The translations under genes were made by a program, and so were the position numbers. A stretch of DNA of 64,000 bases, taken from Leucoraja ocellata. Lineage: Eukaryota. This document shows positions 1-45,485 of the stretch, piece by piece. The stretch is from positions 620,001-684,000 of the forward strand of contig JAWMAR010000328.1 in NCBI GenBank assembly GCA_036785375.1, read 5' to 3'. Positions within the stretch are counted from its first letter, which is position 1. The number at the start of each line of letters is the position of its first letter. The notes below the pieces were generated by a model, which saw only the letters and a list, made by a program, of their open reading frames with translations, was not told the DNA's origin and ran no database searches.

Positions 1-229
1 CCCCGACTGCGGATGGTTTGACTGCCCCAACCGCGGGAGACCAAGAGGAAGGAGACTGAACTTTATTGCCTTCCATCACAGTGAGGAATGTGGAATCCAC
101 TGGGGTGGATGTTTATGTTAACTTTTATGTGGTTGTGTGTCTTGTTGCTTTTCATTTAGCATGGCTGCATGGTAACTCAAATATCACTGGGCCTTAATTG
201 GTACATGTGACAATAAACTTGAAATCTTG
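1..229 (+). mobile_element. 3' part of a GC-rich non-coding retroelement with Rex1-like tail
   Basis: Contains the gccttccatcacagtgaggaatg motif shared with copies at 3.8, 39.4, 51.9 and 55.3 kb; ends gtgacaataaacttg. Confidence 0.6.
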
Positions 230-429
230 CTTTGTTCCATGTGCAGGCAGAAGGGATTATTTAATTCTGCATCAATATCAGCACAGACGTTCTATGTTCT
301 AAGTTGAGGACATACTGTGCAGCTCGGGCTGGACAAGTATTTTGCTTCTTTTGCAAATAAGAAAAAAATGGAGAAAAAAAAGACAATCAGGCTGAGTTCC
401 ACTCTGCATTTCAATACATCTACATGTTT

Positions 430-530
430 TTGGCTCTGAAGAAGGGTCCCGACCCGAAACATCGCCTGCCCACCCATTCCCTTCACAATTGCTCTCTGAC
501 CCACTGAATTCCTCATGCAACTATGTGTTT
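430..530 (+). mobile_element. Penelope pLTR-derived fragment with minimal hammerhead core (436-463)
   Basis: ctgaaga-agggtcccgaccc-gaaac-atc. Confidence 0.65.
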
Positions 531-532
531 TA

Positions 533-645
533 TATAACCATATAACAAGTACAGCACGGAAACAGGCCATCTCAGCCCTACAAGTCCGTGCCGAACAACT
601 TTTTTCCTTTAGTCCCACCTGCCTGCCCTCATACCATAACCCTCC
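533..645 (-). mobile_element. CR1-type LINE 3' tail
   Basis: (taaccata)n tail plus acagcacggaaacaggccatctc, nearly identical to 27497-27620. Confidence 0.7.
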
Positions 646-935
646 AAGATTCCAGCATCTGCATATCCTGGTGTCTCTGGTTCTTTGTCTCTGCTCTTTA
701 TTCAATGCTTTCCCCCACTAACCCGGTTATAGCATGGATTACAACTTATCCCCATGGTTACCCTTTTACGCTGTTAGAGACATCCCCCTCCTCCGTCCTC
801 TCTGCAGCTTTACAAACTGCTTTTGTCTCCTTCCCAGTCCTGACAAAGGCTCTTCGACCAGAAACATTAGCTCAGCCTCTCATCCCACAGATGTAGCCTG
901 GCCTGCTGAGTATCCCCACCCGTTTCTATTCTTAT
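646..935 (+). mobile_element. Old Penelope terminal fragments with degenerate hammerhead motif
   Basis: ctgacaaaggctcttcgaccagaaacatt...gatgtagcctggcctgctgagtat; 750-790 is the reverse complement of the block near 4870 and 6020. Confidence 0.45.
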
Positions 936-2539
936 ATTAATTTGTGGAATCATCGCCAGTTGCATTATTGATTATCACCATTCACTTTAATGTCTTTCAA
1001 TGTTTGGCTTTGATCTAGATAATGCCAGCAAAATCTGTAATCAATTTGATTACTGAAGCATGAACCACATTCCTCACAAGGCACTAATGGGGAAAGAACA
1101 TTTGTCCCTTGTTATTCCAACCACCCGGAACAATTCTAAATCACCTCTACTGTTGCAAATAATTGAATCTTAAGTAAAGATAATACTTTTGCTTCCACTC
1201 TATCTGCCTTGATAAGCCTTTGAAGTAAAAGTTGGACATGGACCAGTCCCACCTGCCCGTGTTTGGTCCATATCCTTCCAAACCATACCCCCCAGAAGAT
1301 CATTCTGAGGTACAGCGGAGGAGCTGATTAAACTTCTTTCCTCACAACTGCTCGCCCTGATACCAGGAATGAGACTCACTGCCTTGCTCGGCAAAACCTC
1401 CACTCAACAGGACCTCTGGTGTTTCTCACTGACTAAAAATGGACAAAGAGCACAAATTAAACTGAGTGCTGCATAATTGGATTCGGATTTTCCACTGTTG
1501 TTCCTATTCTGCGTCAACATTTCGGTTCACTATGTTTTTCTGCTGCATTGTATTCGGAGTCTGTGTGCAATATTAGCTCAAATGAGATTCTGGGATCTGT
1601 TTCCACTTGATCCTGAGCAATTCCAGCATAGAGACAAATTGTGGTGGGTGAATGTAGTCTCCTACCTCACTCACAACTGGCACCAGGTCATCACCATGAA
1701 GCTTTCATTTTATTTCTCTCTGCATATGTTGTGTTTTTGCAGCACTTTCTGCCTTTGCACCACAGCCAGCTGGAGGTCTTGCTTTTATTTGAGATATGTA
1801 TTAGTTAGATATTGCACTATTGCTCAAGATGAGCATTATTGTTAGGTACCAGTTATACTCACCTCTGACATTGAATGGTGATGATATTTAATGGTGAGTA
1901 TTTCCCCCCAAAACAGGGTGCAGTAACTGTGATTCACAACCAAAATCAAAGCCCACTCATGGTGAAGTTTGGAATGCTGATATACTACAGAGCTTTTTCC
2001 AGCTACACAACAAGAATCGGCCAAATTCATGAATGAAGTGCAAGTTGCTGAATCATCTCATCTAATTGAATGGGTGAAGCTGATATTTTTCATTCTCTTA
2101 TTTGTTACAGAGACCAGAGGAGGAGTGACCTTTTTGTTCTTTGTGACGAGAAGTGTTGCAACAGCATTGCTAAAAGGGGAAGCAAACATACATCACACAG
2201 CCAGCTCGTGTTCCTTGAGGAATCAGTTTAACAAATGAGAATGGCAACAGTCCCCGTTTGAAGTGGCACCAAAAGCAACCTGCTGTACTGAAGGATTTGT
2301 GAACCTTGCGAAGGGTCACATTCTCAGTGATTAGCAAAAAACTAACGATGTGATTTGTAAGTTTGAGAAACATCTGTCGATTGCAAATGTTCCCGTCTAT
2401 TTCATATAACAAGTTGTCTTGATTGTCACAGAGTTTCTGAAGCATTTGACCTTTCCTTCTGTTTCATGGGGACACAACCCTGGTCTCCCAACTGGTGAAC
2501 CTTGGTTTGATGCACAACTTGCTACAATATTGACATAGA

Positions 2540-2870
2540 GGTGTACAGCATAGAAACAGGCCCTTTGGCCTATCAGGGCTCTGGGAGCCATCACTAATCA
2601 CATTTGTCTGCATTCATTTAATATCCTTCTGTGCCTTGCTCATTCAAGTACCTATCAAGATCCCTCTAAAATATTGTTACTCTTCTTGCCTCCACCACCT
2701 ACTTTGCCAATTCATTTTATATACCAACTACTCTCCGTGTGAAAGGTTAACCTCTCATATCCAATTTAAACCTCATTCATCTCACCTTAAACCTACGCCC
2801 TCCAGTTTAAAACACCTCTACCTTGAGAAATAGACTCTGGCGATCTATCCTATTCTGCCTCTCAAAATTC
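2540..2870 (-). mobile_element. Degraded CR1 3' fragment
   Basis: gcatagaaacaggccctttggcc ... ccaactactctccgtgtgaaaggtt (reverse of the FFTQRVV-coding motif). Confidence 0.55.
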
Positions 2871-3239
2871 TGTCCGTCAGCGGGTCATCTTGCCACTGTT
2901 GCCCTCTGTGAGATAGCACAACAAAACTGCAGACAGGAATTACCGTACATAGGAAAAGGTTATAGAACAAGGGGGCATTAGGGTAACATGAGTGAGTCAA
3001 ATTACTCCTTGGACAATTGTGCAGTCATAGTGGGGTTGACTGCCTCACCCTGAGCAGGGCAAATGGGATAAACTCCTTGCACCCCTAAACAGGGTCACCT
3101 AGATGGCCCTGAGTTGTAGACATTCACAACTGAATGAGATGCCTTTCTTCATCTCAATTCTAAATGTTCAACCCTTTATCCCAAATCTCTGGGCTTTTGT
3201 TCAAGTCTCACCAGCAAGAGAAATAGAGATGTATAATCT

Positions 3240-3462
3240 TAGAGTCATTGAACTCTACAGCATGGAAACAGGCCCTTCGGCCCACCTTGTCAAGTTGACA
3301 TACTAGCTTGCATTTGGCACATATGCCTCCGTCTCATCTGCATATCTTTCCAAATGCCTTTTAAAATTCATGATTCTGTCCACTCCTATAGCTTCCGCTG
3401 GCATCTCATTATAAATACGGACTAGCCTCAGAATAAAAAAGTTGCCCCTGAGGTCCCTCTTA
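3240..3462 (-). mobile_element. Degraded CR1 3' fragment
   Basis: catggaaacaggcccttcggccc ... aaaaaagttgcccctgaggtccctctt. Confidence 0.55.
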
Positions 3463-3736
3463 ATAATAATCATAAATTATTACACTGTCACTGGATGTTT
3501 TTTAGGGTTACAACCTCTGCTAGGTGACAGTGTGATTAATGATTTGTCAAGATCTAAACTAAATTTATAAATATATTGTTTATCTAATATAAATTCATAA
3601 AGAAAATAAAGTTTCAGGTATATTTTACTTTTAAGAAATATTACTCAAGTCATCGATCAATGCCACTTCTGCTTATTTTGTTTTCTGCATGTATGTTAAG
3701 TTTAAACTAGAACAGGCTGAGAAAGCACAGCAACAT

Positions 3737-4543
3737 TACAATACAATACAATACAATTTATTTGTCATTTGAACAATGAGGTTCAAACGAAATGTTGTTT
3801 CTACAGTCATACACACAAGAAAGAACCAAGACACAAACATCCATCACAGCGCATCTCCTCCTCGCTGTGATGGAAGGCAAAGACTTATCTCTCCCCTGCA
3901 CTTCCCATTCCCCTCCCGATGTCAGAGTCCAAGTCAAAGTCCCCGGCGGGCGATGGTAATTGTCCCGTGGCCATTTACGCCGCGCCGGGTGATGCAAGGC
4001 CACGCTCTGGATCTTGTTGTTGGAGCCTCCGGCGAGCGCTAGCAAAGTCCCGCAGCCATTCCAAGCCACGCGGGGCGATGATGTAAGGCCCCGCTCCAGG
4101 TACTCTTCAACCCCGCAACTCGGGCGGGTGAAGTCGCCATTGCGGATGCCCTGAAAAGCGGTCTCCCAGCAGGGTAAGCCTCCGAATCCCAGATGTCGGG
4201 TCGCAGCAGCGCGCCACCACTGCTCCTCCGAACTCGGCCAGCTCCATGATGGTGAGTAGGTCCGCAGCTCCGTGACTGGAGCCCCAGGTCGTTCCTGCTG
4301 GAGGCCGCTCCACGGTGCTAGGCCCCAACGACAATGGAGACCCGACAGAGAAAAGGTCGGGTTCTCCGTGCAGAGGATAGATTTTTAAAAGTTTCCCCCA
4401 CCCCCTGCCCCCCGCCCCCCACACACATACCCACACCCATACACAAAAAAAATAATAAAAACTACATTCAAACGAGACAAAAAATAATAAAAAGACAGAT
4501 GGACTGCAGAGGCCGCTGCGACGTGAGTCGCGCCGCCCACCGG
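3737..4543 (-). mobile_element. Apparently complete GC-rich non-autonomous retroelement (Rex1-like tail, (attgt)n)
   Basis: (tacaa)n at the left end, cgctgtgatggaaggc motif, CpG-rich body homologous to 54701-55405 and 51745-52053. Confidence 0.7.
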
Positions 4544-5080
4544 AATACTGTACAGTCTGTTTAAATCTGTACAGTATAGTTTAAATCTACTCCAAAACAT
4601 AGAAAATAAGGGATATCTGAGAGTGATTACCCAGCAAAAATAAAATCCATGAACCACAAGAGTGTACATTTATAACAATCATATGAGATTAGATTACAAT
4701 CTTAAAATCATCCTTTAATGTTGGATCAATTTTTTACTTACCAGCAAATGTCAGTGCAAACAACATTGGTCAACATGATAACATAAAATGTTGAAAAGGC
4801 CATATTTGTGGGAAGAGCAATATCATTAACGCCACAGACCAGAACTGGGAAGATTGCAGGGTGGTTGAGGGGGATGTCTAGAACAGGGGGGAATAGTGGG
4901 AAACCAGGGTGGCCATGGGCATAACCTGTAAACCAGTCAATGAGTGAGTGAGAGCAGTTGGAGACTGAGGACTCCAAAGAAAGGTAATAAAAGAACGTGG
5001 AAGTTGCAAAACGCAGAACAGGAAAACAGCCTGACAGGTTGTCCTCCATTGCCACAGGAAAAGCCAACAGGCTGGGCTAA

Positions 5081-5625
5081 AGAACCTGTCCCACGTGAGC
5101 CTGTCCCACTAATCCGCGAGTTCTGGCGAGTTTGCCCTCGTCTCATATTCGCAGCATGGTCGACACGAGGTCGTAGGAGGTCTTCGTAACTCTCCTTCAT
5201 GCTCGAGAGTGGTCTCCGCGTACTCGAGGCCTCAGCTAGGTTGCGACGTTTTTTTCAATATGTTAAAAAATAAATGCCCGCCATGGGCATTAAAAAAAGG
5301 TTGCCAGGGAAAAAAATCTATACTTTTTTTACTTGTAGGTTTAGTCGTAGTAGATCGTAGCAGGTCGGCATGTTAGTCGTAGGTAATCGAGGGTACTCGA
5401 AAGTAGTCGAAGATAGTCTTCATCATAGTCGAAGGGAGATCGAAGGAGATCAAAGAGGTCATCTTCACTCTCCACTATTCGGTGTCCAATTTTCCCGAAG
5501 TTAGTCGTAGCTAGTCGAAGCTGGTCTTCAACATAGTCGAAGGAGGTCGAAGGAGGTCTTCAACATGTCATTTTTTTGAACTCTTCTAAACTCGCCAATT
5601 AGGTTGTCCAAGTGGGACAGCCTCT
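5081..5625. mobile_element. PIF/Harbinger-type MITE with internal gtcgtag/gtcgaag repeats
   Basis: TAA at 5078-5080 and 5626-5628 (3-bp TSD); termini agaacctgtcccac ... gtgggacagcctct form an imperfect TIR. Confidence 0.7.
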
Positions 5626-5984
5626 TAATGTTGCAGAAGGCCGATTAAGACAAACAGAGAAGTCAAGATGCCTGACGTTATAGAATTCAATAAAACAGTG
5701 CTTCTTAAACTGATGAATGGTTCACCCAAGGGTGAATGACATTATTTTGGGATGAATGAGTTAATTTATGTTTTTTGCTCATGTGACAAAATAGATTATA
5801 TATAAAATTATACACAAGGGAAAATAAGACAAAAATTACCAAAAAAAACATAAGAAAATGTAGTCGAGGGTGAATGAAATTTTGTGATAAAGACTCGTGT
5901 GAATGACACTGAAATAGTTTAAGAAGCACTGCAATACAAGACCACATCTGTGGGAAGAGCAAGAGAGGGAACGACACAGGTCTG

Positions 5985-6490
5985 TGGGACCAACTGGGAA
6001 GATTGCAGGGAGGTTGGGCAAGGGGGATGTCTCTGTTAGGGTAAAACCAGGGTGACCACGTGTACTTGAGTACCATGTGTACCTGAAAACCAGGTGTCCA
6101 GAGGCTGCAAGGTGCTCAGGAAGATGGTGAGATGCTGTTCCTCGAGCTTGCATTGGGTCTTGCTATAACATAGCAGGAGCTTGTTGACGGAGTGGGAGTG
6201 GGCTGTTGACGGAGTGGGAGTGGGCTGAGGAATTAAAGAGGCAGGGAATGGGGAGGTCAGGGTTGTCCCTGCCGACCCAACCCAGGCGTTCCATAGACTG
6301 GCTACCCAAATGGTCACCCAAATCTGCATTAGATCTCTCCTGTGTGGAGGAGACACATTCAGAATCCTGCTCTGACAATAGATCTCCTTAAAGTTAACTC
6401 TGTTCCTCTTCCCAGCGACGTGGCCTGACCTGCTGAGTATTTCCAGCATTTTCCCTTTTTATTTTAGATTTCCAGCAGCTGCAGTTATTT
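5985..6490 (-). mobile_element. Penelope-like retroelement remnant (GIY-YIG endonuclease C-terminus plus terminal repeat)
   Basis: Minus-strand ORFs give DLPIPCLFNSSAHSH and LLLCYSKTQCKLEEQHLTIFLSTLQPL, resembling vertebrate Penelope PVARHFNS...RKLEEQHLIFRLGTLQP; frameshifted. Confidence 0.7.
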
Positions 6491-6989
6491 TCAATGACAT
6501 TTTATCAATATGCTTGGCATCATCAAAGCATAATGTCATTCACACCAACAGAAACATTATTAAATTAAACTTATTTTAAAATAATTTGTACTTCATTTGC
6601 ACATTCTCTGAACATAAATAATACTGGGAAAGGGCAAACAAAATGAACGGGGAACTGAGGAGAACATTCGTATCCCGATGGGTTTTCATGGTCTGGAGCT
6701 TATGACCTAGAAGGACAATAGAACTATATTCACCATTTATTTTCAAAAGGAGTTTGAGACGTAGTGGAAAATGAATCTATTTCCAGATGGTGAGAGGAAG
6801 TAAGATGACGTGAGGCAGCCTAGGAGTGTGCAGAGGCACCATGCTCCAAATGGGCTCCTTCTTCTTTCATTTTAGGATTCTTCAAAATTTCACTGTGAAG
6901 TGGCAGACATCAACGGAGAGCTTACTCCAGGTACAATGTCTCCTTCCTCTCACTCTACCACTGCTCATTTCACACCGACCCTTGTGTGA

Positions 6990-7175
6990 TCCAAAGATAG
7001 ACACAAATGCTGGAGTAACCAAATGGGACAGGCAGTACCTCTGGAGAGAAGGAATGGGTGACGTTTCGGGTCGAGACCCTTCTTCAGACTGAAGAAGATG
7101 ATGCCTGTCCCGCTGAGTTACCCCAGCATTTTGTGTCTATCTTCAATTTAAACAGCATCTGCAGTTCCTTTCCCA
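6990..7175. mobile_element. Palindromic Penelope-derived element with intact hammerhead core on the minus strand (7060-7087)
   Basis: Left arm gacacaaatgctggagtaac... mirrors right arm gttaccccagcattttgtgtc; minus strand reads ctgaaga-agggtctcgaccc-gaaac-gtc. Confidence 0.75.
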
Positions 7176-8144
7176 CCCTGTGTGGTTCACTTCAGTTGAA
7201 GTGTTGCTTTGGCTTTTCAGAACCATTTTGTTATTGTATTTGTAAAATGATTGTTATGCAGGTTGAGTCAATCAAGTATCTTACTTGAAGGAACTTGACT
7301 GAATATTAGTGTGGGCTGCTTACTCTTACTCTCGGGAGTATACTGGCTGGTAACAGAGGAAGTGGATGGCATAAGTGCAAGCTTCGAACCCATTAAAATG
7401 ACCATGGGTGATTGGGAATCCAATTCCTGCAAGTTACTGCCTCTGTTCCGAGAATCCCATGAGATACACTAGATATCAGTGCACAGCAAAAGAACAGGCC
7501 TTAATAAGCGATGGTACTTCATGCTTGTCCTCCTGTGCCACACAGACGTGATTGTAGATGTCTGGACATGGGTGTACAGGGAATATCTCTCTCAGTCTTT
7601 TACATATTTTGGCATTTGAAGTAAATCGGATGCTGGAGTAAAAATTTCAGGTTGTTAATTGCTGCCACTACAGTAAGTGGGGAATTTGCACTTGGGTTGC
7701 TACCTGTCAAGGTAAATTGTTTACTTCTCACAACTTGCTCGTTTATGACATATAAATCCAGGGAATCTGGAAGTTAAATAGTTCAACAGCTGCAGGATGT
7801 TTCTTTTCTTTAAGAAGACAATGTACAGTAATCCACAGGGACAGAATTGCAGTGAGTGTAGGTGCAAGCCTGTGTTCAGTCTCACATTAACTACATTTTA
7901 TGCAGTGCTTGCATAATTTTCTGTTCAAACGTTGTTTTTTTGGTATTTGGTTAAATAATGAAATGCTTGTTTTTAAAGATTATCTGTGAGAACAATAATG
8001 GAAATGTTTGTGCTTGAAGCATCAGTGCTTCAGTGCTGATGGTCTGATTACCTTAGTCTAGTGCACATGTAGAGCCTTGTTTGCGACCAGTGGCACTCTG
8101 TGCCTGCCCACCCGGTATGTGGAGAAGTTGCTTTAGACTAGACA

Positions 8145-8670
8145 TTAGAGATACAGCGTGGAAACAGGCCCTTCGGCCCACCGAGTCAACATGACCAGCA
8201 CTTACTCTAGCACACACTAGGGACAATTTACAATTTGTAGAAGCCATTAAACCTACAAACCTCTATGTCCTTGGAGTGCAGGATGAAACTGGAACACTCG
8301 GAGAAAACCCACGCGTGTCACAGGGAGAATGTACAATCTCTGTACAGACAGCACCCGTAGCCAGAATCAAACTCAGGTCTCTGGCGCTGTAATGCCCCTG
8401 TCCCACTTAGGAAACCTGAACGGAAACCTCTGGACCCCAACTTTGCGCCCCACCCAAGGTTTCCGTGCGATTCCCGGAGGTTGCAGGTGGTTGCCGGAGG
8501 TTGCAGGTAGTGGAAGCAGGCAGGGAGACTGACAAAAACCTCCGGGAGCCTCCAGGAACCGCACGGAAACCTTGGGTGGGGCGCAAAGTCTCCAGAGGTT
8601 TCCGTTCAGGTTTCCTAAGTGGGACAGGGGCATTAGGCAGCAACTCTACTGCTGCACCACTGTGCCGCCC
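8145..8670 (-). mobile_element. tRNA-derived V-SINE (HE1-like) interrupted by a MITE
   Basis: Minus strand starts gggcggcacagtggtgcagcagtagagttgctgcc; V-domain gtacattctccctgtgac..gcgtgggttttctcc; CR1-like tail ggcctgtttccacgctgtatctctaa. Confidence 0.8.
8393..8632. mobile_element. Palindromic PIF/Harbinger-type MITE inserted in the SINE
   Basis: tgcccctgtcccacttaggaaacctgaacggaaacctctgga ... tccagaggtttccgttcaggtttcctaagtgggacaggggca; flanked by TAA/TTA; removing it restores the SINE sequence ctggcgctgtaaggcagcaactc. Confidence 0.8.
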
Positions 8671-8699
8671 TGATTATACACTAAATTAAATGTGTTTTG

Positions 8700-8835
8700 T
8701 GCTGAGGTGCACAAGAACCTCTGTCTTACCTGGAATGGTTGCTGGGGCCCCTGGATGTTTGTGAGGTTGGAGGTAGAGGGACAGGTGTTAGATCTGCTGT
8801 GGTTGCACAGGGATGTAGCAGCAAACCATGGAGTT
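8700..8835 (-). mobile_element. Penelope ORF remnant
   Basis: Minus-strand translation PCNHSRSNTCPSTSNLTNIQGPQQPFQVRQRFLCTS, resembling the Cys-rich linker before the GIY-YIG domain. Confidence 0.6.
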
Positions 8836-9311
8836 GTAGAGGGAGTGGTCTCTATAAAAAGTGGAAAGGCGTGTGGATATCAAGATTTTCTGAAGGTTTG
8901 ACTGTGTCACATTTGATTGTGTGATACTTTGTTCAATATTTGATCATGCCCCATCAGCGCTTAGTTTGAATGTGTTCTCACATTAACTTTACATCAAATT
9001 CCTCCTCTGTCATATGTTATCTTTCCAAATAACAGAAAGGATCTGATGTGTTTTCCAAGATGTCAGTAGAAGCTACGCTTCAAAAAGAACATTGTTTCAT
9101 GTTAAGTAAAAGACACTATATCACCTCAAGTATTTTCTTTCTATCAAACAGAAAATGCACTATTCATCTTTTCCCTTGCATTTCATCTGTCCTTGATATT
9201 CCCAGTCAATGTAGCCAAAAGGCATTTTCTGTCCAAGCATCAGTTTGTGATGAACGTTTGCAATGTATTTGCTAAAGATTAATGGTTTTCACAACAGTTT
9301 CAGGACTTTAA

Positions 9312-10189: not shown

Positions 10190-10580
10190 CCTTCCTTCTC
10201 TCCAGAGATGCTGCCTGCCCCGCTGTTAATCCAGCTTTTTATATCTATCTTCGGTGTAAACCAGCATCTGCAGTTCCTTCCTACACCTTTTTTACAAATG
10301 GCCTCAATTGACCAAATGAATAGAGAGAATTGTGAAGCAGAGATCACCCCTGCTATTTGTGTAGGAAGGAACTGCAGATGCTGGTTTACACCAAAGACAA
10401 ACACAAAATGCTGGAGTAACTCAGCGGGTCAGACAGCATCTCAGGAGAAAAGGAATAGGTGACGTTTTGGGTTGAGACCCTTTATCAATTTCATGAAGGG
10501 TCTCGACCCGAAACGTCACCAATTCCTTTTCTCCGGAGATGCTGTCTGACCCGCTGAGTTACTCCAACCTTTTGTGTCAT
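10190..10580. mobile_element. Penelope-derived arms, including a palindrome at 10360-10580
   Basis: tgctggagtaactcagcgggtcagacagcatc versus gatgctgtctgacccgctgagttactcca; centre gaagggtctcgacccgaaacgtcacc. Confidence 0.75.
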
Positions 10581-10884
10581 CCCTTCTATTTGTTGTGTTG
10601 GACACTGGGCAGCCATTCATGAAATACATTCATGAAATACATTCGGCACTAACTCAAATGCTAATAAAATCATTTACATTTATGCAGCCTCCAAACTGGC
10701 AGTAAGTGATGGCTGAATCAAGAAAGCTGGAAATATTCAGCAGGTCAGGCAGCATCTGTGGGGAGAGAAGTAGACTTTACAATTTATGGTGATGATCTTT
10801 CTTGCAAAACATTTCCATAATTATTTGCTTTTATTTGTAGATTCCCAGCATTTCCATCTTTTAATTACCAATTGTTTTGTTTAA

Positions 10885-12640: not shown

Positions 12641-13194
12641 CAACAGCATGGAATCAGGTCACCCGATCTGCACTGGCCATCATGCACTGATTGTTAAACT
12701 ATTCATTCCCCAAATCATTTGATACTTCTCACATTCCCATCAACACCCCCATCACCATTCTGATTCAACACAGAAGGGCCAATTTACAATGGAATATTCA
12801 CGTGGTTTTCAAAGTGTTCAGATGTTCAGAATCTTTGGTAAGAATTTGTTCATTTCAGTAATAGTGATGAGAGTAATAGTGATGAAGGATTGGAAGTAAC
12901 ATTTCCACAGCTCTGAGAATGGTTGTGTTTGGGTAGAGAGTTGGTGCCATCTTGGTATCATTTTCACATTGTTCTTGTCTGCTGTGGGTAAGGGGGTGCA
13001 TCTTGTCAGGTGGGTAATCAATCTTCCATGGACTTTAAACCGATGATGATCCCAAAGCCTGAACAATAACAACAAAGCCTGCCAGCTGGTACCAAGCCAG
13101 TGGTGCATACATTCACCACCATTGGAGAGGCTGCCTCCTGAACTGCCAGGATAATAAAGTTGATGTGGCAAATCCAAATGCAACATGATAACCT

Positions 13195-13402
13195 CAATAG
13201 ACACAATTAGCTGGAGTAACTCAGCGAGACCGACAGCTTCGCTGGAGACAAGGAATAGGTGATATTTCAGGTCGAGACCCTTCTTCTCAACCCGAAACGT
13301 CACCTATTCCTTTTCTCCAGAGATGCTGTCTGGCCCGCTGAGTTACTGAAGCTTTTGTGTCTATCTTTGGTTTAAACCCACATCTGCAGTTCCTTTCTAC
13401 AC
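13195..13402. mobile_element. Palindromic Penelope-derived element
   Basis: gctggagtaactcagcg...ggtcgagacccttcttc / cccgaaacgtcacctattcc...cgctgagttact; catgataacctcaat occurs on both flanks (13183 and 13402), a possible duplication. Confidence 0.7.
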
Positions 13403-14489
13403 ATGATAACCTCAATCATGTTTTACTGCTCTTTAATGTAAACATCACATAATATGTTTGTATTGACTCTGTTTTATTTCTTGAACTGGTTTTTTGTCTG
13501 AATTATTTCATGTGTCACCTTGAAAAAATTACCACTATCAGCCCAGCATTTCATTTTACTCTTTACAACAAGAATGGCCCAGAAACAGCATTTGATCTCT
13601 CTCACCTCACAGTAAGTGTCTCAATCTGTTCCGCAGTTCATTGCTGCTGACAAACAAGTACTCATCAAAGGCGATTGCAGAATAGACAAGCTGTTCAAGC
13701 ATTAAATAATCTCTAAAAAAAACTCAGCTAGGAACCCAATGGGGGAAATGGCTCCATGTATCATCAGAACTGCTGGCAAATGCCTCGACCAACGATGAGA
13801 GGAAACTGATGAAAGCAAAGCACAGAGCAAGGGAGGAAGTAGCTGACGACTTTAGAAATGTTGGATTATTCGGGGTTTTTATTAGCACTTTTACACAGGA
13901 CATTACATCCAACACAGGATTATTAACACTTTTTTGTTTTAACCAATAGGCTTTATGAAGATGCTTGTACCAACAGGGCAGTTTGAAAAACATTGAACAT
14001 AATAATTGCCCAAGAATGACATTAATCCAGTTAATCAACAATAGAATGTCACTCCCACCCTCTGGGTTTCTACTGGTGAAGAGAGAAGATGCTACCTCAC
14101 CTGGCATAAATAAGGATGATTTATTCCAATGGATATTCCACGTTGTGTTTCACTAGGGATTCAATGGAACAAATTGGAATAGAGTAAACTTTAAAGAGGT
14201 GTAAGAAGAGATGATAAAGCCAAGAGACTGATTGGGAGGAACTTTGGAGGAATTAAATGTAAATGTCGAAAAGTGTGGATAAGCACATCAGTAGCAGTGG
14301 AGATGAAGATTAGGTGAGAATTGCTGTACAATTGCCCTGCGTGTAGTTTGCTCTTCTTGCCTAACAAGCGATGTACTTGTCACATATGGTATAGTACTTT
14401 CACCACATTGGTTTCTGGCATGGTGAATTTGCCATATGATTGGAGAATAAGGAGTTTGGGGTATTTCCTCAAGAACTTTAAAAAATGAG

Positions 14490-15165: not shown

Positions 15166-15292
15166 AGAAGGAACTGCAGATGCTGGTTTAACTAAAGGTA
15201 GACACAAAAAGCTGGAGTAACTCAGTGGGAGAGGCAGCAACTCTGGAGAGAAGGAATGGGTGACATTTCGGGTCGAGACCCTTCTTCGGACA
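15166..15292 (-). mobile_element. Penelope-derived arm with near-intact hammerhead core
   Basis: Minus strand gtccgaagaagggtctcgacccgaaatgtcacc (CUGA changed to CCGA). Confidence 0.65.
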
Positions 15293-16334: not shown

Positions 16335-17141
16335 GCAGGGAGCAGGGAGGTTCTACTGCAGTTGTACAGGGTCTTGGTGAGACCACACCTGGAGTATGGC
16401 ATAAAGTTTTGGCCTCCTAATCTGAGGAAAGACATGAGAAACATAGAAACATAGAAATTAGGTGCAGGAGTAGGCCATTCGGCCCTTCGAGCCTGCACCG
16501 CCATTCAATATGATCATGGCTGATCATCCAACTCAGTATCCCGTACCTGCCTTCTCTCCATACCCCCTGATCCCCTTAGCCACAAGGACCACATCTAACT
16601 CCCTCTTAAATATAGCCAATGAACTGGCCTCAACTACCCTCTGTGGCAGAGAGTTCCAGAGATTCACCACTCTCTGTGTGAAAAAAGTTCTTCTCATCTC
16701 GGTTTTAAAGGATTTCCCCTTTATCCTTAAGCTGTGACCCCTGGTCCTGGACTTCCCCAACAAGAAACTTACAAAATTCTTAAGGGGTTGGACAGGCTAG
16801 ATGCAGGAAGATTGTTCCCGATGTTGGAGAAGTCCAGAACAAGGGGTCACAGTTTAAGGATAAGGGGGAAATCTTTTAGGACCAAGATGAGAAAAACATT
16901 TTTCACACAGAGAATGGTGAATCTCTGGAATTCTCTGCCACAGAAGGTAGTTGAGGCCAGTTCATTGACTATATTTAAGAGGGAGTTAGATGTGGCCCTT
17001 GTGGCTAAAGGGATCAGGGGGTATGGAGAGAAGGCAGGTACAGGATACTGAGTTGGATGATCAAACATGATCATATTGAATGGCGGTGCAGGCTCGAAGG
17101 GCCGAATGGCCTACTACTGCACCTATTTTCTATGTTTCTAT
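16335..17141. mobile_element. CR1 composite: + fragment (16335-16436), inverted 3' end (16437-16761), + 3' end (16762-17141)
   Basis: ORFs 16533..16763(-) and 16734..17051(+) both encode SRTRGHSLRI.GK.F.T.MR..FFTQR.VNLWNSLPQ; sits between two parts of a Penelope arm (16296-16335 and 17143-17260). Confidence 0.85.
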
Positions 17142-18069
17142 AAACACAAAATGCTGGAGTAACTCAGCAGGACAGGCAGCATCTCTGGAGAGAAGGAATG
17201 GGTGACGTTATGGGTCAAGACTCTTCAGGCCCTGTCTCAGCATCTGCAGTTCCTTGCTTCTATAGTTTACACCAGTTAGCTGTAAGGGGAAAGTTTTACC
17301 TTGAGGTTGACGTGTTGTTAATCCCCGATGGGATTGGGGTGTGTTCATTGTTTGCACCATGCTTGCAGTTCAGTTGAAGACTGTCTGCTACAATCAACAG
17401 TTGCGTTCACTTTATATCCAAGTGAGTGAGAATGACAGGGATATTCAGCTCTAGAGACCAGTTCACAAATGCTGCAAATCATTTCCACGATTTAAGAAAC
17501 TATTTGAATGCAAATGTGTGTGTGCGCATGATCCGAGTTAAGGTTCAGACTGGGCTTCAAATAGTCTGAGCAATTTTGTCTTTATATAGATTCCACAACT
17601 AACTGGAGATCTGTAGACTAAAGTGCTGAAATTTATTCGCTTTTTTTTCCAAAGTATGCCTAGCAATATTCTGTTCAACAGATCTTGCGGAACAAATATA
17701 GAAGGATAGTTAATTTTGTTACAAGTGGCTGATAATGCTGAACAAATCATCAGTTTTAATAGTAAATTCAGCCAGCACCAACATATTTGCACTGATTTAT
17801 GGTTGAGAGAGTTTGCAATAAAATCAATGTATAATTCATATTAATGTATGGCCAGCAGCAATGAGGTCTATTTTTGTCCAATTGAAAAGGCACCTTCTGC
17901 CCCAATAACCCTGAATACCTCATTCTGAGGATAATAATTGCCATCCTCACATTAACCAACAGAATTGCTTCAAGATGGAAAACCAGTCACCTGTGATGTT
18001 AAAATCTATTCTTGTATTACTGCAACATGTCATCTTTATTATCTCTGAGGTTTCAGCAGATTGGTATCA

Positions 18070-21329: not shown

Positions 21330-21900
21330 AAATGACGAGGGCAAAAATTGGGGCAAGAGACAGCTCTGGCAGATAAGATAAATGAGAATCCAAAGGTATT
21401 TTATAAGCACATTAAGGGAAAGAGCAATACTGGAGAGAGAACACCCCCACAGAAACAAACTGGTCATCTATGTGTGGAGCCACAGGACATGAGCAAGGTC
21501 TTCAATGAGTGTTTCTCCACTGTTTTAACTGTGGATAAAGACATAAAGATTGGGGAACTTGGGACAGGTAATGGAGATGTCTTGAGGATAGTCGGTATTC
21601 TGGTCGAGGAGGTGCTGGACTCCCTGGGACATATAAAGGTAGACACATTTCCTGGACATGATCAGAATATACCCAAAACCCTGTGGGAAGCAAGAGATGT
21701 AATACTAGCAGCCATAGCTGAGATAATTGAATCATTGTTAGACACAAATGAGGTGACGGATGACTGGACGTTGGCTAATGTAGTGCCTCCATTTAAAAAG
21801 GGATGCGAGGAAAAGCCTGAGAACTGGAGACGAATGAGCCTAAATTCTGTGGCAAGCAAGTTACTAGAAAATATTCTGAGGGGTAAGATATACAGTAAAC
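21330..21900 (+). mobile_element. CR1 ORF2 fragment (pre-RT to start of RT)
   Basis: ORF 21348..21911 INENPKVFYKHIK...DWTLANVVPPFKKG...PENWRRMSLNSVASKLLENIL. Confidence 0.85.
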
Positions 21901-21999
21901 CCTCATTATAATGGACCATAGGGAAGGGAGTGGTGCCCGTTGTTGCCGATTGTCCACTGCAACCGATTAAGGTATTATCATTGTATGTAGTTGAAATAA

Positions 22000-22270
22000 A
22001 GCACTGCAGATGAGGGTTAATACTCAAGGTGCTGGAGTAACTCAGCGGGTCAGGCAGCATCACTGGAGAACGTGGATTAGTGACAACGGGTTCCGCATAA
22101 GAGGAACTCAACAGGTCAGGCAGCAACTGTGGAGGGAAATGGATAGCCAATGTTTCCATGTGGGGATCTTCATCTTGTGCAGATGAATGGTAGGCCCAGA
22201 AACATCCACTGTCCATTTCCCTCCACAGATGCTGCTCGAGCTGCCGACTACCTCCAGCAGATTGTTGTTG
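22000..22270. mobile_element. Degraded Penelope-derived arms
   Basis: gctggagtaactcagcgggtcaggcagcatc; ccatttccctccacagatgctgc. Confidence 0.55.
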
Positions 22271-22336
22271 TATTTTCTCCACAGCCTGCTGCCCATTATC
22301 ATAAATTACCTCTTGGGTTCAAGTCTCAGCAAAGCT

Positions 22337-24084: not shown

Positions 24085-24215
24085 CCAAATCTCTGTGTCT
24101 CCCTCTCCCCTGACTCTCAGACTGAAGAAGGGGCTCGACCTGAAGCATCACCCATTCCTTCTATTCAGAGATGCTGCCTGTCCCGCTGAGTTATTCCAGC
24201 ATTTTGTGTATTTAT
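24085..24215 (+). mobile_element. Penelope terminal fragment with degenerate hammerhead
   Basis: ctgaagaaggggctcgacctgaagcatcacccattcc...gatgctgcctgtcccgctgagtt. Confidence 0.65.
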
Positions 24216-25460: not shown

Positions 25461-25827
25461 TGGAGTGATCGAAGGATATGTTGTCAGATAAACTGTGAAG
25501 CTATGTCACGATGTACCTATATCCTGAGCATACCTGCCCTGCAAAGGAAAGGAAACTGAAAGGTGTTTATAGGAGAAGGTATACCCAGAATATGAAGATG
25601 CAAAGCTGCCATAGGAAATGCAAATAATAAACTCATGTAATAGTCATTTATGAATGGAGGGATATTCACGTTGAATGTAACAACATGCCATGTAATCAGT
25701 TCCTGAACATGTAAATTCATGCTGGGTGTATATTTGAAAATTGTTTCAATTCCTGCTATCACCATCCTTCAATTAAAACAAAATTAATTTAGAAATATTT
25801 GTATAAACAGCCATGACAAATATCAAA

Positions 25828-25914
25828 GGTACACAAAAAAGCTGGAGAAACTCAGCAGGTGCAGCAGCATCTATGGAAATAGGCAACGTTTCAGGCCGAA
25901 ACCCTTCTTCAGAC
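25828..25914 (-). mobile_element. Penelope-derived arm with intact hammerhead core (25885-25912)
   Basis: Minus strand ctgaaga-agggtttcggcct-gaaac-gtt. Confidence 0.65.
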
Positions 25915-27496: not shown

Positions 27497-28326
27497 TAAC
27501 CATATAACCATATAACAATTACAGCACGGAAACAGGCCATCTCGGCCCTACAAGTCCGTGCCGAACAAAATTTTTTTTCCCCTTAGTCCCATCTGCCTGC
27601 ACTCATACCATAACCCTCCATTCCCTTCTCATCCATATGGCTATCCAATTTATTTTTAAATGATACCAATGAACCTGCCTCCACCACTTCCACTGGAAGC
27701 TCATTCCACACCGCTACCACTCTCTGAGTAAAGAAGTTCCCCCTCATATTACCCCTAAACTTCTGTCCCTTAATTCTGAAGTCATGTCCTCTTGTTTGAA
27801 TCCTCCATATTCTCAAAGGGAAAAGCTTGCCACATCAACTCTGTCTATCCCTCTCATCATTTTAAAGACCTCTATCAAGTCCCCCCCTCAACCTTCTGCG
27901 CTCCAGAGAATAAAGACCTAACTTATTCAACCTATCTCTGTAACTTAGTTGTTGAAACCCAGGCAACATTCTAGTAAATCTCCTCTGTACTCTCTCTATT
28001 TTGTTGACATCCTTCCTATAATTGGGCGACCAAAATTGTACACCATACTCCAGATTTGGTCTCACCAATGCCTTGTACAATTTTAACATTACATCCCAGC
28101 TTCTATACTCAATGCTCTGATTTATAAAGGCTAGCATACCAAAAGCTTTCTTTACCACCCTATCTATATGAGATTCCACCTTCAAGGAACTATGCACGGT
28201 TATACCCAGATCCCTCTGTTCAACTGTATTCTTCAATTCCCTACCATTTACCATGTACGTCCTATTTTGATTTGTCCTGCCAAGGTGTAGCACCTCACAT
28301 TTATCAGCATTAAACTCCATCTCCAT
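27497..28326 (-). mobile_element. Young 5'-truncated CR1 LINE (RT C-terminus and 3' end)
   Basis: ORF 27862..28326 MEFNADKCEVLHLGR...LYKALVRPNLEYGVQFWSP..., then TRGHDFRIKG...FFTQRVVAVWNELP; (taaccata)n tail. Confidence 0.92.
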
Positions 28327-29599
28327 CTGTAATAATTTGTAAGTACGTGGCTATTCCATTTACCACTTCCAGATTTCAGGTCCAAATGGCAGATTACAAA
28401 ATAGTAAATGTCGCTTTTCCCTAACTTAAATTTGTTGGCCATTCTCTATATTTTGTGGAACACTACCAAAAGCAATGGACAGTTCTACGTCTGCATATTC
28501 CGTCGTGCAAATGCACATCACAGTTAATCAAATGGAAAAGTTGAGACCATCGCAAGCTCCCATTAAACTTGAACGTGAATAAAGCTTCAAGGTTCAAACA
28601 AATTAAATGAGTAGACCCTCGAACAGAAAGAGAACAGAATGAATGTACTTCCTCCAGGGAGTGCCTCCTTTGTTCTTCTTCTCTCACTGAATTTGTGCTG
28701 CATTTACACTGGAGCCACAGTGTTGGTATGAAACAAAACTGCTTTGTAACAACACCGCAGTTATCGTGTGAACGCACACTGAGATCGTACAAAGCTGTTT
28801 GGCAGGAAGACAACTCAGATCTCACTGGCAAGCTGCCTGCAGCGTGTAGTTTAGTGATAACTGCTGCTGTAAGTCATGAATCGTTGCCCGTGAGAGCATT
28901 AAAAGTAATTTACTCTAATTATTTTGTGTTGTAGCTAAAATGTTTTTTTTTTCATTGCTTTTTTTTCCCCCTCAGAACATTTATTCTTTACAAATTTTTG
29001 GAGATGTAAAGGAAAGCTCATCTGTCCTGGAAGATTTGCCAGAAAATTACATTGTTTGACAGCTAGAAACCAGGAAGGCTATTAAATAATATTTTTCTCT
29101 TCAGTGATTCAAGTCAGAAACATTGAAAAATATGTTGGAACCTATTTTAACACCGTTCTAACTATAAAGAAAAAAAGTTATCCATTATGATTTTAAACCC
29201 CTGTTGATTGACAGGGAAAGCATCAATATGGATAGAGTAGAGCAAGGCGCATATCTGTAATAGAATCCCAATTTCATTAAATAGATGAAAAGGTCAATGT
29301 GCATCCTATTAGACCGAATAATGTAATGTTATCAAGAGGACTTAGTACAACCACTGCACAATTACATGCTCATTGGTGTCAGCAGTACCTCAGCAGCTCG
29401 CACTTTTACATCGGAGTCTCAAGGTTATATGTTCACATTCCGTTCCAGATATGAGCACAAAGAACAAAGCTGACATTTGAGTGTGCTGCTGAAGGACTAT
29501 ACCTCTGTCAGAGACAGTGTCGTCCAGATTAGGTGCTAGAGACACGAGAACCATGGCTAGAAATTGGAGCAACGTGTGATGGAATTTCATCAAAGAAAT

Positions 29600-29959: not shown

Positions 29960-30853
29960 TCAGATTCAGATTCAGATTCAATTTTAATTGTCATTGTCAG
30001 TGTACAGTACAGAGACAACGAAATGCATTTAGCATCTCCCTGGAAGAGCGACATAGCAAATGATTTGAATAAATAATAATAAGTGTCCGGGGGGGGGGGG
30101 GGGGGGGTGGGTGGTGATTGCCAGTCACCGAGGTATGTTGTTGAGTAGAGTGACAGCCGCCGGGAAGAAGCTGTTCCTGGACCTGCTGGTTCGGCAACGG
30201 AGAGACCTGTAGCGCCTCCCGGATGGTAGGAGGGTAAACAGTCCATGGTTGGGGTGAGAGCAGTCCTTGGCGATGCTGAGCGCCCTCCGCAGACAACGCT
30301 TGCTTTGGACAGACTCAATGGAGGGGAGCGAGGAACCGGTGATGCGTTGGGCAATTTTCACCACCCTCTGCAATGCCTTCCGGTCGGAGACAGAGCAGTT
30401 GCATTACCATACTGTGATGCAGTTGGTAAGGATGCTCTCGATGGTGCAGCGGTAGAAGTTCACCAGGATCTGAGGAGACAGATGGACCTTCTTCAGTCTC
30501 CTCAGGAAGAAGAGACGCTGGTGAGCCTTCTTGATCAGAGTAGAGGTATTGTGGGTCCAAGAGAGGTCATCGGAGATGTTGACTCCCAGGAACCTAAAGC
30601 TAGAAACACGTTCCACCTCCGTCCCGTTAATGTGGATGGGGGTGTGCGTGCTGCCTCTGGACTTCCTGAAGTCTACAATGAGCTCCTTGGTCTTCCTGGA
30701 GTTAAGGGCCAGGTTGTTGTCAGCGCACCATGCTGCTAAGTGCTGGACCTCCTCCCTGTAGGCCAACTCATCGTTGTTGCTGATGAGGCCAATCACCATT
30801 GTATTAACTGCATACTTGATGATGGTGTTAGTACCATGTACAGGTGTGCAGTC
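29960..30853 (-). mobile_element. Young 5'-truncated Rex1/Babar LINE
   Basis: ORFs VIGLISNNDELAYREEVQHLAAWCADNNLALNSRKTKELIVDFRK...FYRCTIESILTNCITVW and LFTLLPSGRRYRS; (cagatt)n tail. Confidence 0.92.
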
Positions 30854-37958: not shown

Positions 37959-38369
37959 AACTTACTGACTGCGACCTGTAGTTTGGCTTTTAAGCTATTT
38001 TTTTCCCCCAAGTAACTTCTATCTTCGTCCGACTGACAGTTCGTATGAGGATTTCAATGGCACATCAAGCATCCCTTAAGTGAGCCGTAATTTACAGGGC
38101 TATCCAGATGGGGTTGGTTTCAGGGCATTTAAAAAAATATATAAAAGTGGAAAATTAAATTCTTCCATTGTCATGACAAGCCCAATTTCTAATATTCAAT
38201 ATCCTCTAATTCACTTGGGTACCGTATATAAATAATACATTAACCAAGCAAGGCAAATGACATTTGAGCTCTTTTCAAAGTGTAGGGATTGTTTCTTATA
38301 TACAGGTCCACCTGTATTTTAAATCCCCCTCAAAAATGTGGAACCTAGGCCAGATGAGTCCGCCGATCT

Positions 38370-39998: not shown

Positions 39999-40096
39999 TC
40001 TGTGAGTCATAGATTTAAAGTAATATGGTAGAAAATTTCAGGGGGAGGAGAGAAAACGTTTTTTCCAGTCAAATTGTGGCTGGTAACTGGTACTTA

Positions 40097-40222
40097 CGAA
40101 GGGTCTCGACCCAAAACGTTACCCATTCCTTCTCTCCAGAGATGATGCCTGTCCCGCTGAGTTATTCAAGCATTTTGCATCTATCTTCGATTTAAACCAG
40201 CATCTGCAGTTCTTTCCTACAC
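40097..40222 (+). mobile_element. Penelope-derived arm
   Basis: gaagggtctcgacccaaaacgttacccattcc...ccagcatctgcagttct. Confidence 0.7.
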
Positions 40223-43104: not shown

Positions 43105-45485
43105 AGGAATTCTTACAGAACCATTTATTTCAAATAAAAATCTGCATGACTTTTTACAAGACTATTTCTCATTTTAGAATAAACATGATCCAAAGCTTGC
43201 AGATCTTATAGGCTTAAGTTACATTTGGATCCATTTATATTTTCTGCATTTACACAAAAGTTTTACATGATACCAAAAACAATTATGCACAACTTTCAAT
43301 ATGTAAACAGTCAACATATCTAATGTACATCAACAAGAATGGCAACTGCTGTTTTTTGTGATTGGGAGTATTAAGAAAATAAATCGCATTAGTTGAAAAC
43401 TACTAGTTGATGTTTCATTTTTTACAAAGTTGTTTATAATATTTTAAACTTAAGTTAGTTGCTAGTGAGTATCCTTCAAGGAATGCAAACTAGCAAATTC
43501 ACTTCTTACACAGAAGCTGAAAAATTAGCCCTCAATAAACATTCCCACATTAAGAGTACACAAAGGAAGCTTGGCAAATGTTCGTACCAGGAAACTCTAT
43601 ATCATAAACGAGCTACTATTTATATACCAGTGTTTGCAGCAATAATAATGTTCAATTAAAAGTTCCAATGAATTAAACCTTGAGCAAACCCAAGGTAAAG
43701 TGAAAAATATTACACATGGTCAGGTATTTTTATGAAGTCAATATAAATTATATGCGCACATGTAAAAATAAAATGGGCTGTAAAATCTTAAGTATTGATA
43801 ACTGGTAGCTCTGCAGTTTATTGAAGGTTATATCCATTAGGGGTTTGTTGCCCATCATATTTAAGTTACATTCCAATGATTTTGATGGTGAATTTGGAGC
43901 ATGTGAGCTATGGCCAGGGGCAGCTGCTGCATCCGATCACTCAAGTGACAGGAAGAACGTGCGCCACGTCAGAAAGGAATGGGATTTTGTTCCCCTGCAC
44001 GTTGGTGCATATGGGCATCTGTCATCAAATTCATTGCATTTTATGTAGAAGGTGTGTGAAAAAAAAAATCAAACTTTGATGCAGGTAACCCCTATCCTGA
44101 ACTGAAGCAAGAAATGAATGAGAAAATAAATCCTCAAAGCAGATGTACATTATCTTTGAATTCATAATTGGAGCTGGAATGTGGGTCCATATCTGCGACA
44201 ACTATCAACAATTTTCCAAACTATTCTCCATCTGGACATTGAACAAATTTGCACGTGGAGAGAGGGAATACCAGATGATATTAATGGACACACCTTCCAC
44301 GCAAGTCCCAAAGAGTGTGCATTGAAGATTGATTCAGCCATTTTTAAGAAAGAGGTCAAGCCAAAATATCAATAAATATAATTGCTATTTAAAAGGATGC
44401 TCGTTCACACACAGAAAATGGTCAAAAAAGGACACAAAATGTTGGAGTAACTTAGCGGGTCATGCAGCATCTCTGGAGAACAAGGATAGGTCACATTTTG
44501 GGTTGAGACCCTTTGCCAAGTCTGGAAAAACTATCAAGGGCGAACTTTCTGGAAGGAGCCAGCCGGCAGTAAGTGTCCGGATAAGTACATGGATGTAGCA
44601 TTCAATATCTACCAGTTGGAAGATTTGTTCAACACACATAGTTCATGTAGCTGTATGGCCACATCACAATAAAGCCTGAAGGAGCGGGTGTGAAAAAAAA
44701 ATCAAAGCACATAAAATGATCTGAATAGGTTGTTACAACAAAAGAATTATTAAAAAAAAAAAAAAAATAGAATTGATATCAGTAATTACATTTTTGCACC
44801 AGTGGAAACACTGGCTGAGATTTCATCTGCAGTGGTTTGTGACATAGCATGCAAATATTTAACTGGCCTACAGAAGCCTCTGAACAATTACTTAATAATT
44901 ATTATTTTAGGTCCATACTTGAGGTTCAGGGTGTAATTTAATCACTTAGGTATTTTTTTTATTCTAATAAAAAGACATTGAACAGATAACTTTGTTTCCC
45001 TCCTCAGAATTTCTGTCCAACATTTGCTGCATTTCTGCTCAACCTTAACTTCCTAATTCCTTTTGAAAATATTACTTCAAACAATACTAGTCATCTGAAA
45101 TGGACACTGAAAAGTATACAATCTTGGCATTCAGATTTTGCACGTTTTACTTCAAATTTTATCTTACATTGTTTTTTCTTTTCGTTAAAAAAACACTTAA
45201 TTATACACTACTTCGATGTAATCTAACATTTAGAATGTCTGTAAACAAATGCCAAAAGTGCTTACTGTGCCGCGATTACTATGATAGTAACAGCACTTCT
45301 GTGCAAAACTCTCACCAAAATGTAAAATAACTAAACAGCAAGTTAAAAAATGTTTAGATAGTAAACCATCTATTCCAATTGGGTACAAAATCCATCGCAA
45401 ATATCATCAAACAGATAATAAGAGGTCTAATTGCTCATTTCAACATTATTGTACACGTGAAGAATTCCTTATTGACACCATGTGG
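43105..45485 (-). other. GRAMD4: Probable GRAMD4 3'UTR (about 2.4 kb)
   Basis: AT-rich, repeat-poor sequence following the stop codon, with U-rich tracts on the mRNA strand (e.g. A-run near 44752-44767 on +); the 3' end is inferred from the poly(A) signal. Confidence 0.6.
43124..43129 (-). terminator. Candidate polyadenylation signal AATAAA for GRAMD4
   Basis: + strand tttatt; on the minus strand it is followed by U/GU-rich ttccttgtttatggttttat. Confidence 0.55.

Follow-up and report, generated by a model that had tools for sequence, protein, structure and literature searches.

A short repeat resembling a minimal hammerhead ribozyme, in places joined head-to-head to a second copy of itself, is dispersed through a 64,000-nucleotide stretch of the genome of the skate Leucoraja ocellata (assembly GCA_036785375.1, contig JAWMAR010000328.1, positions 620,001 to 684,000; hereafter the window). 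A preliminary description of this DNA derived the repeat from Penelope-like elements (PLEs) and proposed that it either spreads as a non-coding, ribozyme-bearing unit or provides cleavage sites in host transcripts. The question raised by the locus is, in other words, whether these palindromes are elements in their own right, sites recruited by the host, or pieces of a larger element. The palindromes are real, Penelope-derived and of a known kind, new neither as a ribozyme nor as an element class. They are clipped, mostly decayed PLE end pieces with an RNA motif predicted to self-cut; they do not form a ribozyme unit of their own, and nothing points to a function for the host. Their value lies in the dense record that they hold of how PLEs insert.

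A profile of the repeat arm, built from genomic relatives of window positions 10360-10580, recovers 24 arms in the window, among them all 13 positions previously listed for the repeat. In a random sample of 80 evenly spaced 10-kb stretches of the same assembly (800 kb) the same profile finds 408 arms, against 0 in the reversed-sequence control. Extrapolation from this sample gives about 1.7 million arms in the 3.44-Gb assembly, which seems to hold two haplotypes, since window loci have twins of 98-99% identity on another contig. Exact copies in the genome number 59,697 for a 44-base word of the young coding subfamily and 29,049 for a 34-base word taken from the main subfamily of the window, with controls at 0 in both cases. 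Arm positions are numbered from the C of the CAGU just before the core, so that C3 is position 5, stem II 13-24, GAAA 25-28 and C17 32, the predicted cut falling at 32|33; core nomenclature follows PMC4209133. The arms had been described as often joined head-to-head, and the three elements named for this are indeed so arranged, but just 8 of the 24 window arms (4 elements) are. The features of the window are the following.

6989..7174, both strands: head-to-head insertion of two pLTR arms, centre 7088
Minus arm of 6989..7174, minus strand: arm positions 1 to ~102, no tail
7058..7089, minus strand: complete minimal type-I hammerhead motif (C3 7087, stem II 7068-7079, GAAA 7064-7067, ACGU 7061-7064, C17 7060, predicted cut between 7060 and 7059); stem I of 2 bp, 7088-7089 pairing with 7058-7059
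7089..7174, plus strand: second arm of 6989..7174, positions 5-13 joined to 54-~131, tailed end
6978..6988 (left) and 7175-7184 (right), plus strand: probable target-site duplication of 6989..7174, one-base indel, identified by eye
10360..10580, both strands: head-to-head insertion, tailed arm left, both cores decayed (8/11 core positions each)
10348-10359 and 10581-10592: target duplication of 10360..10580, 12 bp, one mismatch
13199..13401, both strands: head-to-head insertion, tailed arm right and beginning after CUGANGA
13184-13198 and 13402-13416: target duplication of 13199..13401, 15 bp, exact
22101..22275, both strands: old head-to-head pair, each arm beginning inside stem II
25822..25914, minus strand: solo arm of the subfamily nearest the young coding element (88% over 93 nt), with the window's second complete motif
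435..528, plus strand: solo arm that retains the core and stem II but not the ACGU palindrome
15166..15291, minus strand: solo tailed arm, core decayed
17140..17228, minus strand: solo arm without tail, core decayed
24118..24214, plus strand: solo arm without tail, GAAA mutated
40093..40221, plus strand: solo tailed arm, core decayed
44396..44518, minus strand: solo arm, core decayed
840, 6391, 10192, 10722, 16295, 21995, 23038, 53327 and 54305: further decayed arms or pieces
6084..6203, minus strand: decayed C-terminal piece of a PLE GIY-YIG endonuclease, with the inverted arm 6391-6490 on its 5′ side
8676-8807 and 40738-40851: further ORF remnants

At 7060-7087 of the minus strand, singled out in the preliminary description as the best copy, CUGAAGA is followed by one extra A, stem II, GAAA, a palindromic ACGU and a GUC triplet, which is the anatomy of the minimal type-I hammerhead that had been invoked. 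The core elements, the extra base after A9, the G10.1-C11.1 pair and the palindromic stem III are present both here and in the young parent described below; helix I, in place of 4-5 bp, has 2 bp in both subfamilies (U-A or U-G, then G-C). The estimate of about 2 bp for stem I is confirmed, and the doubt about activity expressed with it was, in our judgement, right. That the repeat as such carries a hammerhead core holds for 7060-7087 but not for most copies: all 11 core positions and a 4-bp stem II are kept in 3 of the 24 window arms, the ACGU as well in just 2 of these (7060-7087 and 25885-25912), and the complete motif in 23 of the 408 sampled arms, or about 99,000 in the assembly by extrapolation. 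The covariance-model search that had been advised, carried out with Rfam, gave no match to a hammerhead family even at E≤10.

The minimal hammerheads described in the pLTRs of metazoan PLEs (PMC4209133) have the same core, the extra base between 9 and 10.1, the G10.1-C11.1 pair and a palindromic 15.2-16.2 without loop 3; they are likewise located in pLTRs, mostly as dispersed single copies, and opposite-strand pairs 100-700 bp apart are reported for them, like the palindromes here. The skate motifs differ in stem II (4-5 bp versus 7-8), in stem I (2 bp versus typically 4-5 bp, with 2 bp only in a D. virilis variant) and in copy number, about 99,000 extrapolated complete motifs comparing with 4,000-9,000 in coelacanth and Xenopus. 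Cartilaginous fish go without mention in the accessible text of PMC4209133, and a literature search found no paper on their Penelope hammerheads.

The proposed Penelope origin is borne out, as the arm is tied both to the ends of GIY-YIG ORFs and to a coding parent: the repeat is the ~135-nt 3′ end (pLTR) of a PLE encoding reverse transcriptase (RT) and a GIY-YIG endonuclease. Specifically, at the 28 other genomic loci found with the window's GIY-YIG C-terminus (6084-6203), a sense arm lies within 600 nt downstream of that terminus in 19 and an antisense arm in 1. In the random sample, a 398-aa frame with RT and GIY-YIG stops 115 nt short of an intact motif; it has at least 150 genomic matches at 99-100% identity, several of them in open frames of 1,233 codons; long homologues of the coding frame number 252, many with RVT_1 and GIY-YIG domains. 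From 20 coding loci a head-to-tail unit of 3,946 nt was defined, with the arm at its start, the motif at 5-32, the ORF from 169 to 3831 and then the UTR; truncated copies precede the units, as partial tandems with their pLTRs. The 1,221-aa ORF contains DKG, DVQSLY, GVAMG, RYIDD and GIY-YIG motifs, and a pair of cysteines within the GIY-YIG domain, as in the C-terminal GIY-YIG of endonuclease-encoding (EN+) PLEs. Against Pfam, this ORF gave a weak GIY-YIG match below the cut-off and the GIY-YIG piece of the window no match; a PDB sequence search with a piece of the ORF also returned none. The single ORF of EN+ PLEs, joining RT to a C-terminal GIY-YIG, is found in the sister subfamily, and the window's subfamily shows ORF ends.

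This young coding element belongs to a sister subfamily and shares 76-88% identity with the window arms; for the window's main subfamily itself, just copies with an ORF end and UTR were found, and no full-length intact parent. A CX2-5CxxC linker motif precedes GIY-YIG at residue 1088 of the 1,221-aa ORF. Such a linker is a feature of Neptune and Nematis, absent in Penelope and Poseidon (PMC8557442), and by this motif the element would be of Neptune/Nematis type. Poseidon, the first guess, was dropped on the same motif. At locus L142 (G000:C8:5609001-5619000) lies a very young PLE family. Its copies are 99-100% identical, it occurs in tandem arrays, and its 1,221-aa ORFs are uninterrupted and include a long N-terminal insert rich in proline and alanine; it is a good candidate for in vitro work.

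As to how such ends come to lie head-to-head, we hold with considerable confidence that the arms are hammerhead-bearing PLE ends and that the palindromes are likely the shortest of 5′-inverted insertions, each likely assembled anew at its target. In the random sample, 152 of the 408 arms are joined as 76 compact head-to-head pairs, which extrapolates to about 327,000 such palindromes in the assembly. Insertions end at one of two fixed points ~35 nt apart, at arm positions ~95-105 and ~134, and the tail of ~35 nt is carried by one arm in 58 of the 76 pairs, by none in 16 and by both in 2, where 12.6 would be expected of independent arms. The same plan, one end of each kind and a variable centre, is common to the kilobase insertions of the coding parent: 8 of 9 young inverted insertions of kilobase length have one outer end at ~99 and one at ~134 (the ninth is without clear assignment), with arbitrary internal junctions, and the same combination of outer ends is found in 12 of 13 young pairs. 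Of 46 testable pairs, 28 are flanked by target duplications of at least 9 bp, versus 4.6% of shuffled pairings; the duplications beside inverted pairs measure 9-20 bp. Moreover, the two arms of a pair agree at 736 of 926 subfamily-diagnostic sites (0.79, versus 0.53 in shuffled pairs, with a maximum of 0.59 in 500 shuffles). The origin of both arms from the same template rests on these diagnostic sites, since the copies are old and the own partner is the best-matching arm in just 9 of 64 pairs (mean identity 81% within and 74% between pairs).

EN+ PLEs are known to insert as an inverted 5′-truncated copy with a one-sided tail of 30-40 bp (PMC8557442, PMC3846280), and head-to-head junction palindromes have been described in their insertions (PMC3846280). 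The inverted truncated copy, the one-sided tail and the target duplication are all found here; partial tandems and head-to-head inversion are shared as well. Compared with these published elements, the truncation in the skate is often so extreme that just two pLTR tips remain, and the start of the ORF lies not inside the pLTR but downstream of the tail, at unit position 169. In Poseidon of Anolis carolinensis, there are two adjacent internal RT starts, both strands are cut and extended, and the hammerhead is dispensable for insertion in vitro (PMC11167929); there, too, RT starts ~100-135 nt downstream of the hammerhead define the tail, loci are tandem and the hammerhead lies in the pLTR. Poseidon differs from the skate element in having no zinc finger in the linker and an ORF that begins at stem II. 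In the skate, the PLE protein would nick both target strands, and each strand would prime reverse transcription at one of the two internal start sites, ~99 or ~134. Both cDNAs would then run towards the 5′ end of the RNA and be joined at short self-complementary words or by end joining. If transcription of the RNA begins at the initiator-like TCAGTC immediately preceding CUGA, run-off copies of ~100-135 nt would result from priming in the 5′ pLTR.

The 5′ ends of the arms bear on this last step. For young arms, 99 of the first 100 matches listed gave 98 arms, or 85 after removal of near-duplicates; 38 of their 5′ ends lie at positions -4 to +8, 15 follow at 9-40, the 115 nt upstream of the front edge contain 8, and the remaining 24 are still further up, a 42-fold excess of density at the front edge of the motif among the matches listed. 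Exact duplications of at least 9 bp accompany 15 of the 32 solo young arms that end there. In the window's subfamily, represented by 70 of the first 100 matches listed, 34 of 64 arms stop at the front edge without UTR. As a loose BLAST classification of UTRs also matched 48 of 169 random controls, adjacency clustering and young copies were used instead. The pile-up is likely a transcription start, as judged from sequence features such as an initiator-like YYANWYY centred on position 2; an excess of cap-derived G before the 5′ ends was not seen. A splice-acceptor reading of the front edge was rejected, as many ends keep AG and share no common upstream exon. No description of a front-edge pile-up or of twin priming in PLEs was found in the literature, where subscription papers, Repbase entries and supplements may hold one; the pile-up is not described in the accessible part of the Poseidon paper (PMC11167929).

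The same ends allow a possible but clearly less probable account of the solo arms, as a SINE-like, non-autonomous derivative that would keep an internal promoter together with the sites for protein binding and RT start, be transcribed from the front edge and be re-copied in trans, the palindromes still being made at insertion. It is compatible with the insertion model above, to which it would add a second template source. The front-edge concentration of young ends, the UTR-less arms of the window's subfamily and the initiator-like match fit this idea, and in a rotifer the pLTR alone sufficed in trans (PMC3846280); run-off from the 5′ pLTR of a full-length RNA, however, produces identical ends, the 3,946-nt unit contains YYANWYY 49 times, and the subfamilies inspected also have UTR- or ORF-bearing copies. 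More doubtful still is an extended version in which a PLE-driven SINE would be transcribed from the front edge, two RT subunits would start at the two tail sites on one RNA or on an ACGU-held RNA dimer, both arms would be built at once, and an occasional ribozyme cut would leave starts at the cut site. In that case the genome would record the PLE reaction in its 1.7 million arms, and these would contain the first in vivo trace of minimal-hammerhead cleavage. In three independent young arms the 5′ end falls exactly at position 33, the first base past the cut (3 of 7 ends in 16-40, p=0.002), which is a hint of occasional cutting by the motif of the parent. Such ends number 0 of 64 in the window's subfamily and none is evident in old copies; pooled over subfamilies they are 3 of 15 (p=0.02, or 0.27 allowing ±1 nt). 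Counting in one genome and an existing in vitro assay can put in vivo cleavage, the transcription start and the twin-start model to the test, since the family is still young, has intact ORFs, uses two fixed 3′ ends with one on each arm, and stops sharply at the hammerhead on its 5′ side.

That the whole palindrome is instead a self-propagating, retrozyme-like unit, processed by its hammerheads and re-inserted as one piece, is very improbable and already largely refuted. The idea draws on the abundance of compact palindromes, on the recurrence of some junctions and on the non-LTR retrozymes (PMC7229834; bioRxiv 10.64898/2026.07.22.740005), which are likewise non-coding, carry a type-I hammerhead and, in animals, derive from PLE pLTRs. 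Retrozymes, however, form head-to-tail arrays in which every unit has a hammerhead, and they have circRNA intermediates; the skate arms are mostly without an intact motif, and those of the window are solo or head-to-head. Abutting same-strand repeats in the sample start at position 25, without CUGANGA, and in 8 cases same-strand neighbours 65-286 nt apart both reach the core start.

The junctions, too, speak for assembly at the target. Distinct junction descriptors are found in 69 of the 76 pairs. In 8 pairs two near-identical descriptors recur at the front-edge palindrome, but about half of these front-edge recurrences belong to one passenger family, and the centres that recur fall on words that are self-complementary in the parent (positions 4, 22 and 29.5). 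The junction of 13195-13402 recurs at about 6 independent loci (10 loci looked at), in two subfamilies, three times with the tail right and three times with it left; the 6990-7175 junction is found again once in the opposite tail polarity and once in the passenger family. Recurrence with either polarity and in different subfamilies argues against a self-copying unit, and junctions that vary and switch polarity are what fresh assembly at each insertion predicts. Seen beside the common plan of the kilobase insertions, this is hard to reconcile with the idea that the palindrome spreads as its own ribozyme unit. Both arms reach the core start in 19 of the 76 palindromes and neither does in 31; in none of the 76 are both motifs intact. 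The suggestion that both strands originally carried a core fails for two of its three named examples. The plus arm of 6990-7175 jumps from arm position 13 to 54, skipping 40 nt at an AG microhomology, and is without stem II, GAAA and cut site (7089..7174); the plus arm of 13195-13402 starts at 16-17, after CUGANGA. As the same junctions occur at other loci, the missing cores need not be later decay. Folding predictions point the same way: for RNA read through the palindrome, a long hairpin is predicted (-76 to -156 kcal/mol) that would bury the motif, the predicted probability of stem II is at most 0.02 in all four contexts folded, the parent included, and the predicted dimer fold (-9.4 kcal/mol) lies 17 kcal/mol above the best competing fold (-26.5 kcal/mol).

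Copying of a palindrome as a unit does occur, as a passenger, one palindrome having been copied inside another repeat. This insertion lies in a dispersed repeat and was multiplied with it (L062:6888-7081, L118:7481-7680, L123:6662-6860, L077:5762-5896 and also L324); flanks included, its copies are 84-89% identical over 360-590 nt; their core is broken, and the differences between left and right are fixed.

The fate of the motif after insertion can be followed by the mismatch between the two arms of a pair, a measure of change since insertion. Outside CpG sites it amounts to 35/281 in the core and 508/3419 downstream (p=0.29), or 385/2705 downstream without the diagnostic sites (p=0.47 against the core); at CpG sites it is 144/359. 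The core thus decays at the rate of the arm, which is one half of the outcome that the preliminary description had named as speaking against its proposals. Against the overall consensus the core looks better kept (95/1280, 7.4%, versus 591/5248, 11.3%, downstream), but the set behind this was selected through alignments extending to the core. At positions 17, 21, 32 and 33 the common second alleles keep pairs or the NUH rule, which fits selection in source elements, although all of them are transitions. Such selection on the hammerhead is likely confined to those elements, with landed copies decaying without sign of selection. Minimal hammerhead motifs have been found inactive as monomers and weak as dimers (PMC4209133), and the lizard motif cut only with its protein, no RNA ends being seen at the site (PMC11167929). 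The least credible proposal of all is that intact copies are co-opted as cleavage sites in host transcripts: about 99,000 extrapolated motifs leave room for a few that matter, and three young arms do begin at position 33 (p=0.002), but against it stand the neutral decay of the cores, the 2-bp stem I, the hairpin predicted to bury the motif, a position-33 signal that is 0/64 in the second subfamily and 3/15 when pooled, the published behaviour of minimal and lizard motifs (PMC4209133, PMC11167929), and a 64-kb window in which no host exon or host gene was identified.

Some further arrangements of the repeat were observed. At L126:9296-9675, L085:8674-8905, L100:1745-1889 and L116:7562-7753, arm positions 25-91 are repeated head-to-tail in units of ~67 nt that begin at GAAAC, without CUGANGA; they may be read either as a minisatellite-like derivative or as a subfamily with a duplicated pLTR segment. 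Loci L252-L259, L261-L263 and L272-L273 comprise a ~3-kb cluster with 8 matching arms and related clusters elsewhere on the contig that have flanks in common with it, so that arms also spread inside a larger duplicated unit. In the window itself, the arm at 17140 adjoins a 320-nt inverted repeat (16443-17141, 93%) whose outer ends carry ATAGAAAC-type microsatellite tails, and which looks like a folded-back LINE 3′ end. At 8390-8635, 47507-47691, 49326-49885 and 58215-58907 lie unrelated elements whose termini are long inverted repeats and which are probably non-autonomous DNA transposons; fragments of other non-LTR retrotransposon ORFs (endonuclease and RT pieces) are found at 21336-21911, 27862-28350, 30404-30886 and 38323-39165.
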